A stretch of 11,880 nucleotides of DNA from a virus (IMGVR_UViG_2602041579_000011:1-11880); one strand, 5' to 3'. Positions 8,376 to 9,446 are shown, counted from the stretch's first letter. Translations and numbers: made by a program. The notes: generated by a model not told the origin, from the letters alone.

Positions 8376-9446
8376 TTACCCCCTGAAGCCCGGCGGAATT
8401 TCGTTATCCGGTTCAGTAATATGATTCACACAACGCTGGTTGTTCGTGCCGCTTACCGGGAGAAACCAGGGGTTCTCAAAATTCCGGTCCGGTCCAAAAA
8501 ACGTCGTCGCTCGCTGAACAAATTCCGTTCCCGCTTTCCCGGTAGCCGCCAGGTATCTTGCGTAACGCCTCACGCCATCCAGCATGGCCTCTGGTGGCAC
8601 CCCCTCGCGTAATCTGGCCTTCCAGGCACTGAAAGCGGATTTCTTCGGGTTTGCTCCGGCACGCAACGGGTACTCCCGCCAGACCTGTTCGAACACATCC
8701 GGATAATCCACTCGTCCCACAGACTGACCGGTGTTTTCCGGGACTACCCGATCGGCTTCCCGCTGAATGGCGGAATCGGCTTCAGGCTGCTGAAGTTGGT
8801 GTGATTGCTCCTGCCTTGCGGTCATCACCTGCTGCACAGCGCCCGAATCGGCTTTCAGCGCATACGCTGAATCGGCTTCCGGTGTCGTGCCTGCTGGCTG
8901 ACCGAGATTGACGGTCTGAACATCCCCTGCCTGGTTCGTGGCGTTTTTTACGCCATGGACCATAGTGTTTTGATCTTCTTGATCTGTATCTTTATCTGTA
9001 TCTTTATCTGTCGTGACTCGTCGTGACATGTGCGTGACATTTCGTGACTCGCCGTGACAATCGCCATTTTGTTCCCGCTTTCTTTCCCTCTCTCGCTGCG
9101 CCCTCTTGCGCTCTGCCGGAGATTTTGCGGTTTGCGAAATATTGCCGTTGTCCTCTTTCAGCACCTGGCGTTTTTCCCATCCAGTGATTAAATCACCATC
9201 AAGTACCCGCCCCTGCATCGTCTGCAAAATTGAATCAATTACCTCTTCTGTCACGTCGAGCGCACTTGCCAAATCTTCTGTCGTGACATCAATGTGACCT
9301 CGCGTGACATTTCGTGACGCGCTCACCAGGAGGTGGATATATACTGCCATCACTGTTGCAATTGGCTGCCCTGACACCCTGGCAATTGTTCGCCACTTAG
9401 GGTCATTTGGCATGTCATGCCATAATCTGAGCCAGGCGTTAGCCAT
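8376..9446 (-). CDS. Phage replication initiation protein (O-like / replisome organiser) with the origin embedded in the coding sequence
   Basis: Position directly downstream of the cII-like gene; GAGGTGAGT-ATG start at 9446 (the ORF-track GTG at 9452 lies inside the SD); coding sequence contains two clusters of CGTGAC iterons and an AT-rich GATC-containing segment. Confidence 0.6.
   Translation of the reverse strand: MANAWLRLWHDMPNDPKWRTIARVSGQPIATVMAVYIHLLVSASRNVTRGHIDVTTEDLASALDVTEEVIDSILQTMQGRVLDGDLITGWEKRQVLKEDNGNISQTAKSPAERKRAQRERERKREQNGDCHGESRNVTHMSRRVTTDKDTDKDTDQEDQNTMVHGVKNATNQAGDVQTVNLGQPAGTTPEADSAYALKADSGAVQQVMTARQEQSHQLQQPEADSAIQREADRVVPENTGQSVGRVDYPDVFEQVWREYPLRAGANPKKSAFSAWKARLREGVPPEAMLDGVRRYARYLAATGKAGTEFVQRATTFFGPDRNFENPWFLPVSGTNNQRCVNHITEPDNEIPPGFRG
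9011..9058. repeat. Iteron cluster 1: five direct copies of YCGTGACW at 10-11 bp spacing, adjacent to an AT-rich stretch with two GATC sites and a 12-bp tandem repeat (8971-9010)
   Basis: CGTGAC occurs at 9012, 9022, 9033, 9043 and 9053, i.e. on one face of the helix; upstream tgatcttcttgatctgtatctttatctgtatctttatctg is AT-rich. Confidence 0.65.
9250..9317. repeat. Iteron cluster 2: four direct (C/T)GTGAC copies plus one inverted copy
   Basis: CGTGAC/TGTGAC at 9282, 9293, 9303, 9312 (spacing 11, 10, 9) and an inverted GTCACG at 9250-9255, about 230 bp from cluster 1 within the same gene. Confidence 0.55.

Follow-up and report, generated by a model that had tools for sequence, protein, structure and literature searches.

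Phased iteron arrays and an AT-rich tract mark a probable replication origin inside the initiator gene of a lambdoid prophage

Where does replication of a lambdoid prophage begin when its initiator is not a homolog of lambda O? The question is raised by a stretch of viral DNA of 11,880 nucleotides (IMGVR_UViG_2602041579_000011:1-11880, here called the window), in which a sequence-only reading had noticed two clusters of short repeats and an AT-rich segment within a presumed initiator gene and had proposed them as a candidate origin. No origin annotation was present in the phage or RefSeq records examined, and searchable literature yielded neither a description of the iteron sequence or of replisome-organizer origins in proteobacterial prophages, nor reports of binding, melting or replication for any member of the family; papers on the "Eru" replication types of Stx phages do not treat this module. 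Based on sequence comparisons and structural modeling, we consider it likely that positions 8932-9318 are the replication origin of this lambdoid prophage, situated within the gene for its own initiator.

The gene in question (8376-9446, minus strand; stop codon at 8376-8378) encodes a protein of 356 residues from the ATG at 9446. The listed open reading frame begins two codons earlier, with a GTG at 9452 (358 residues); a Shine-Dalgarno sequence, GAGGTGA, lies upstream of the ATG and homologs of the protein begin MAN. The open reading frame matches PHROG 3729 (phrog_3729, "replication initiation protein") with an E-value of 1.2e-255, its residues 3-358 aligning with positions 1-356 of the 356-position profile, and NCBI records name the protein "phage replisome organizer." On the strength of these matches we assign the gene as the phage replication initiator. 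Searches of the full protein against Pfam found no family at E ≤ 0.01, Phage_rep_O included.

The genomic setting is a lambdoid early operon that reads leftward in the order cI, cro, cII-like gene, initiator, comprising a cI-type repressor gene (10148-10921, plus strand), a P22-Cro-like gene (9940-10155, minus strand), and a YdaT/cII-like gene (9518-9943, minus strand). The next gene after the initiator is DUF977/Ren-like (7913-8335, minus strand), and further downstream in the early region are a DUF968 gene and the antiterminator Q gene (1297-1992, minus strand). Gene annotation and profile searches identified no helicase, helicase loader or P-like gene after the initiator (7400-8376 and downstream to 1297), nor any loader or helicase gene elsewhere in the window. 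Genes with 98% identity to the initiator gene are present in the genome records of Tritos, Evi and vB_Eco-689R5, which are inducible or isolated phages, and the Tritos record annotates no further replication gene within the ~13 kb surrounding the initiator. The N-terminal half of the module was found in 2173 of 5426 complete Escherichia coli genomes (40%), including O157:H7 prophages.

Several other elements of the window were recorded along the way. There is a full-length sok antitoxin RNA at 5373-5544 (minus strand; Rfam RF01794, 108 bits), indicating that the prophage has a hok/sok-type toxin-antitoxin locus, and a HokD toxin is annotated in the equivalent region of phage Tritos. Four tandem tRNA genes (796-1102, minus strand) lie just downstream of the Q gene. 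A low-GC island at 4100-5230, with 40-mers of 0.15-0.28 GC, includes the least stable DNA of the window and an FkbM-family methyltransferase gene (4317-5183, minus strand), and is probably a moron. A palindrome at 8314-8338, with 12-nt arms CTTGTGTAAAAA/TTTTGCCACAAG, is situated at the start of the DUF977 gene, and the only perfect match to the DnaA-box consensus in the window, at 8316-8324, is inside it.

The initiator can be divided into an N-terminal domain, a linker, and a C-terminal domain. As the structure prediction for the full-length protein was uninformative (pLDDT 47), the N-terminal domain (residues 1-93; 9168-9446, minus strand) was modeled alone with a deeper alignment. The resulting model is confident, has an H1-(b1)-H2-H3-wing topology, and its structural neighbors have the winged-helix fold; we predict this domain to be the one that binds the iterons. 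The predicted fold resembles that of the DnaD N-terminal domain (sequence identity ~10%) and, just as strongly, that of generic CRP/MarR winged helices. The Pfam family of N-terminal phage replisome organizers, PF09681, aligns with the domain colinearly over positions 1-119 of 121, with a score of 16.5 bits that is below the threshold of 23.3 (E = 0.0085), and matches 7 of 47 family members, at best with an E-value of 3e-4. No specificity-determining residues were identified outside the loop that the iterons themselves encode, which we count against the origin reading; only a basic segment after the wing (residues 105-125) differs by iteron class.

The C-terminal domain (about residues 245-356; 8379-8714, minus strand) is presumed to be a module that recruits the host replisome. 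It matches phrog_1701 ("DnaD-like helicase loader") and phrog_9327 ("primosomal protein"), and it ends in a DnaT-like tail, EPDNEIPPGFRG. The last 14 residues of the tail, ITEPDNEIPPGFRG (8379-8420, minus strand), closely match the extreme C-terminus of E. coli DnaT, SEPDNHIPPGFRG, and DnaT matches to the tail were obtained with NCBIfam NF002770 (positions 156-179) and PDB entries 6aep/2ru8. This resemblance suggests that the phage has copied a short linear motif of its host, through which the initiator could be connected to the PriA/PriB/DnaT or the DnaB-DnaC pathway. The preprimosome paper describes the DnaT C-terminal domain as docking on PriA and forming filaments on ssDNA. In some metagenomic proteins (P0155, P0173, P0186, P0210, P0211, and P0218) the N-terminal domain is fused to an HNH endonuclease (PF01844, PF14279), which takes the place of the replisome-recruitment domain.

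Within this gene there are two arrays of direct repeats, both on the gene strand. Array B (9012-9058) consists of five copies of GTCACG spaced 10, 10, 11, and 10 bp apart in the direction of the gene, with the consensus (A/T)GTCACG(A/C). On the plus strand these are the CGTGAC hexamers at 9012-9017, 9022-9027, 9033-9038, 9043-9048, and 9053-9058, with spacings of 10, 11, 10, and 10 bp, and both direct reading and a pattern search bore out the earlier description of five such repeats 10-11 bp apart. Array A (9282-9318) has four copies, three of GTCACG and one of GTCACA, spaced 10, 10, and 11 bp apart; the exact copies are at 9282-9287, 9303-9308, and 9313-9318, and the one-base variant (TGTGAC on the plus strand) is at 9293-9298. 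A single inverted copy (GTCACG on the plus strand) is present at 9250-9255. The second cluster had been described as four direct copies and one inverted copy at 9250-9317; its composition stands, with one of the direct copies being the variant, and only its end needed correction by one base, to 9318.

The iteron units are thus direct repeats of 10-11 bp with an asymmetric core of 7-8 bp, and the two arrays are 224 bp apart from edge to edge and 260 bp from start to start. GTCACG occurs 11 times in the window against an expectation of 4.1 ± 1.9, a count that none of 200 shuffled sequences reached, and nine of the 11 copies fall within 307 bp (9012-9318), or 2.6% of the window. Array B encodes residues 130-145 (CHGESRNVTHMSRRVT) in the linker, and the segment encoded by array B and the AT-rich tract is disordered in the full-length model. 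Array A encodes residues 43-55 (ASRNVTRGHIDVT), which make up the end of helix 1 and the H1-H2 loop of the N-terminal domain, and the inverted copy encodes D64-V65-T66 in the H2-H3 turn.

Other kinds of element were searched for in the same region. An origin driven by DnaA boxes was rejected: the window has 34 near-matches against 26 expected, with no cluster, and 8932-9318 has no box of exact consensus and only two near-matches with one mismatch (9171-9179 and 9221-9229). There was no Rfam match to a known RNA element in 8300-9600. The one promoter-like match within the gene is weak, antisense, and created by the iterons themselves, and the one hairpin is the inverted repeat at 8932-8962 described below; both are within shuffle expectation, and neither an internal promoter nor an internal terminator was retained.

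To what extent this arrangement is shared was determined by a scan of one genome per species, which gave 51 loci encoding the N-terminal domain in gamma-, beta-, and alpha-proteobacteria; four further loci came from metagenomes and assemblies. The layout carried by most of them is array A at about nt 129-165 of the gene and array B at about nt 355-450, both phased at 10-11 bp, followed by an AT-rich tract. Both arrays occupy these conserved positions in approximately 35 of 50 relatives, and in most relatives of the GTCAC type the inverted copy is also at the same place (nt 192-193). There are three or more iteron classes: GTCACG is found in the window and approximately 25 loci, (C)GAACG(C) in about ten, and GTAACG in about six. 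In 28 of 35 genes the most frequent hexamer of array A is also that of array B; of the remaining seven, six have register or strand variants of one motif, and the weak homolog L051 has unrelated hexamers. This comparison of some 50 homologous genes upholds the view that both clusters are real elements, as their positions are conserved and their hexamers change together between lineages. The co-variation of the iterons with the protein is partly trivial, since the iterons invariably occur in cis with the N-terminal domain.

Comparison with related genes, which had been suggested as a check, therefore revealed a layout that is kept, a hexamer that is lineage-specific, and a copy number that is variable. 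Among close alleles the number of copies differs in both arrays, from four to six and from five to seven, and such variation is typical of iteron arrays. The addition of two iterons (21 nt) results in a seven-residue insertion in the H1-H2 loop. The distance between the arrays ranges from 222 to 350 bp in relatives and shows no helical phasing, which argues against a rigid loop geometry. Approximately one quarter of the more distant family members have no hexamer repeated three or more times at the position of array A, and this we count against the origin reading. A rare E. coli allele of 302 residues (P0020, one member sequence) carries an in-frame deletion of most of array B, the AT-rich tract, and the linker that follows; it probably represents an origin-dead cryptic prophage and would provide a natural negative control.

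The repeats are embedded in coding sequence, and all three reading frames of GTCACG are used there: tGT CAC Gnn (C-H), nnG TCA CGn (S-R), and GTC ACG (V-T). This shows that the array is not a peptide repeat. Synonymous sites were assessed in a codon alignment of 19 divergent homologs of the GTCAC type, from hosts with 42-69% GC. The modal base at third codon positions had a frequency of 0.98 in the motif (10 columns) vs. 0.58 at other columns with conserved residues (64 columns; Mann-Whitney p = 1e-6). This invariance extends to array A, array B, and the inverted copy: the codon for V65 in the inverted copy is GTG in 17 of 17 sequences, and in array B the third positions of H137, S140, and V150 are 100% conserved. 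The pattern of substitution identifies the iterons as DNA-level elements that are under purifying selection at synonymous sites.

The third component of the proposed origin is the AT-rich tract at 8967-9011, a candidate DNA unwinding element of 45 bp with a GC content of 0.29. It is made up of (GATAAA/GATACA)n repeats, has a purine-rich coding strand, and encodes TDKDTDKDTDQEDQ. No 40-mer of the gene is less stable than the core of the tract (8968-9007, GC 0.25), for which the nearest-neighbor dG is -43.4 kcal/mol vs. a window mean of -54.0 ± 4.5. The tract is only moderately AT-rich (GC 0.25-0.29) and is not the least stable segment of the window, as segments of lower GC exist at 4100-5230; this is counted against the origin reading. 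In almost every relative, the 30-mer with the lowest GC (0.10-0.33) starts no more than about 30 nt after the last iteron of array B, even in genes with 65-69% GC. The motif in these tracts is (A)GATAA(A/G) or GATACA with a period of 6 nt, and the mean purine fraction of the coding strand is 0.75. Depending on the lineage it is translated as DKDKDK, QIREEEIRE or RLDKRR; because the motif is read in different frames, it is the DNA that is conserved. The suggestion that this stretch could serve as an unwinding element therefore gains from its conservation as DNA across reading frames and from its being the least stable 40-mer of the gene.

Other details of the tract fared differently. The two GATC sites (8972-8975 and 8981-8984) and the tandem repeat of TATCTTTATCTG (8987-8998 and 8999-9010) that had been reported next to the first cluster are indeed present. 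As a family feature the GATC sites did not hold, since only 13 of 37 relatives have one; this represents a twofold enrichment, and we do not count GATC, or Dam sites as a defining trait, as part of the design.

On the distal side of the AT-rich tract is an imperfect inverted repeat (8932-8962), whose 13-nt arms are complementary at 11 of 13 positions and enclose a spacer of 5 nt. Full-length relatives with 46-58% protein identity retain it, the peptide encoded here being conserved too. Where the C-terminal module is a different one, the corresponding position is occupied by another palindrome, which is GC-rich. A palindrome or inverted repeat also lies beside the AT-rich region in lambda, of which the repeat in the window is reminiscent. 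GC-rich inverted repeats after the tract were observed in two unrelated sequence contexts, TGGTYCATGGCG...CGCCAsTGAACC and CGCGCAyGTGCGCG, the loci being the window (8932-8962), L053, L055, and L056 (near nt 480-520), and L002 and L006 (near nt 465-520). Many relatives with other C-terminal modules have a C-rich element after the tract, such as CCCCCCTTACCCCCC, which encodes PPLPP and is located ~40-70 nt after array B (L004, L005, L007, L012, L013, L015, L021, L023, and L024). The element CCCCCCTTACCCCCC is absent from the window.

The N-terminal domain, the arrays, and the AT-rich tract form one unit that is joined to various C-terminal domains and helper genes. In the O157:H7 allele (L058), the N-terminal domain, both arrays (six and five copies), and the tract are shared at ~85% DNA identity, beyond which the gene goes on to encode a DnaT DNA-binding domain; its downstream neighbor is a "replication protein P" gene. 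Shigella Stx phage 75/02, on the other hand, shares only the C-terminal 479 nt. In the distant full-length relatives L053, L055, and L056, a DnaC/IstB-like AAA+ gene lies directly downstream. The C-terminal module is thus exchanged independently of the N-terminal/origin module, and since the latter is shared while the C-terminal parts and downstream genes differ, its components travel together as one specificity module. Judging from these gene contents, different C-terminal parts go with different partners for helicase delivery.

From the above we propose the following course of initiation. The N-terminal winged-helix domain would bind the iterons through the core (A/T)GTCACG and, as the head-to-tail arrays are phased at one helical turn, the bound protomers would line one face of the DNA and could oligomerize. 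The nucleoprotein complex would probably bridge or wrap arrays A and B, which are ~225-260 bp apart, and could destabilize the 45-bp, strand-asymmetric AT-rich tract downstream of array B. The C-terminal domain may then bring the host helicase machinery (DnaB) to the opened DNA, in keeping with a prophage that is without a loader gene of its own. Transcription of the pR type through cro and the cII-like gene would cross the origin, as it does in lambda, and may have an activating role.

Whether arrays A and B act together in initiation is a matter on which we find the evidence evenly balanced. The most demanding version of such cooperation is a bipartite origin that needs both arrays, with a bridge between them that loops or wraps the ~230 bp and melts the AT-rich tract, and with array A as a self-titrating roadblock in addition; this version we regard as unlikely. 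If it were true, the roadblock would couple initiator synthesis to origin occupancy, and a change of specificity would need coordinated changes in two arrays and in a protein that has its H1-H2 loop written by one of these arrays. The loop peptide, which is beside the wing, might in that case even contact the iteron that encodes it.

We rate as less likely than not a division of labor in which array B and the AT-rich tract would be the origin proper, and array A a control element apart from it to which the initiator also binds. Array A could then be an autoregulatory roadblock in the initiator coding region, or a handcuffing or titration site that limits initiation. Array B and the tract alone, in the inter-domain linker, do reproduce the layout of lambda, some distant relatives without a clear array A retain the tract, and the variable, unphased distance between the arrays fits a control site as well as it does a flexible loop. 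Against this reading, the synonymous sites of array A are as strongly conserved as those of array B, it switches iteron class together with array B, and its copy number expands in parallel. The evidence on array A does not separate a role in initiation from one in control, and we therefore treat the control function as a refinement of the origin reading rather than an alternative to it.

We regard it as very unlikely that the arrays are sites for a different factor or DNA transaction, such as a host protein, the repressor, Cro, the cII-like protein, or a packaging or recombination protein. Lambdoid early regions do hold many regulatory sites, and the binder of the arrays is predicted only. Yet the N-terminal winged helix is the only constant partner of the arrays across these mosaic genomes, which vary in their immunity genes, C-terminal domains, and downstream genes. 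The variation of iteron classes within single host genera argues against a host factor, DnaA boxes are not enriched, and the adjoining conserved AT-rich tract is a hallmark of origins. Finally, a functional repeated peptide (SRNVT or VT) with the DNA periodicity as a by-product can be dismissed as extremely improbable: SRNVT does occur twice (residues 44-48 and 136-140), as had been anticipated for RNVT-type motifs, and family members agree closely in the residues that array A encodes, but one hexamer is read in three frames, the 10-11 nt period is not a multiple of three, synonymous positions in the motif are invariant while neighboring codons drift, and the AT-rich tract keeps its DNA motif whether it encodes DKDK, QIREE or RLDKRR.

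Defining an origin within the initiator gene, the reading we prefer, would open a way to study how a major class of prophages, which includes relatives in Shiga-toxin phage backgrounds, replicates, is induced, and amplifies its copy number. The GTCACG, GAACGC, and GTAACG classes would represent natural orthogonal pairs of initiator and iteron for studies of specificity or for vector design. The locus is also a case of overlapping constraints, in that a binding-site array is written through a loop of the very winged-helix domain predicted to bind it.

How does this putative origin compare with those of known systems? In satellite phage P4, the iterons of ori and crr are of an octamer type, are approximately one helical turn apart, and fall into two separate clusters, each of which the initiator binds. 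The short iterons of the window, about one turn apart and in two clusters, are similar in this respect. The P4 clusters, however, are kilobases apart and bound by a primase-helicase (alpha protein); they have no sequence relation to those described here and are not inside the coding sequence of a DNA-binding domain. For the DnaD N-terminal winged helix, which belongs to initiation in Firmicutes, the resemblance is one of predicted fold, at ~10% sequence identity.

The replisome organizer of phage SPP1, gp38, binds direct repeats in its own gene (oriL) that are beside an AT-rich DNA unwinding element (PMC6316719). The window is similar in having repeats and an AT-rich tract inside the initiator gene, and the N-terminal domain aligns end to end, below threshold, with PF09681. 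Unlike the situation here, where the second array is ~230 bp away in the same gene, the second set of repeats in SPP1 (oriR) is ~13 kb away and non-coding. SPP1 also encodes a loader and a helicase (gp39 and gp40), neither of which is encoded in the prophage window, and its host phylum and sequence family are different.

The closest parallel in organization is with lambda. The lambda ori consists of four iterons of ~19 bp that have dyad symmetry and are bound by dimers, whereas those of the window are short, lack such symmetry, and follow one another as direct repeats every 10-11 bp. The two systems also differ in that this initiator is not a homolog of lambda O (no Phage_rep_O), that there are two arrays, one of them inside the coding region of the DNA-binding domain, and that the window has no P gene, the downstream gene being DUF977/Ren-like. 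In lambda, the iterons and an AT tract lie in the middle of gene O, downstream of pR (PMC7466680), and in Stx-phage variants with six iterons the protein is lengthened by the amino acids that the additional iterons encode (PMC7466680). Here too, the iterons and AT-rich tract are in the initiator gene between a DNA-binding N-terminal domain and a presumed recruitment domain, the gene is downstream of pR, cro, and cII, and N-terminal/origin and C-terminal modules recombine independently, just as the N-terminal part of lambda O travels with ori-lambda. The analogy drawn in the sequence-only reading, of lambda-like logic with iterons of different sequence in two clusters inside the initiator gene, is therefore apt. 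While iterons inside an initiator gene are textbook knowledge, the sequences of this family bring together features that appear to be its own: an initiator other than O, short direct repeats phased at one helical turn, and two arrays, one of which lies within the coding sequence of the DNA-binding domain.
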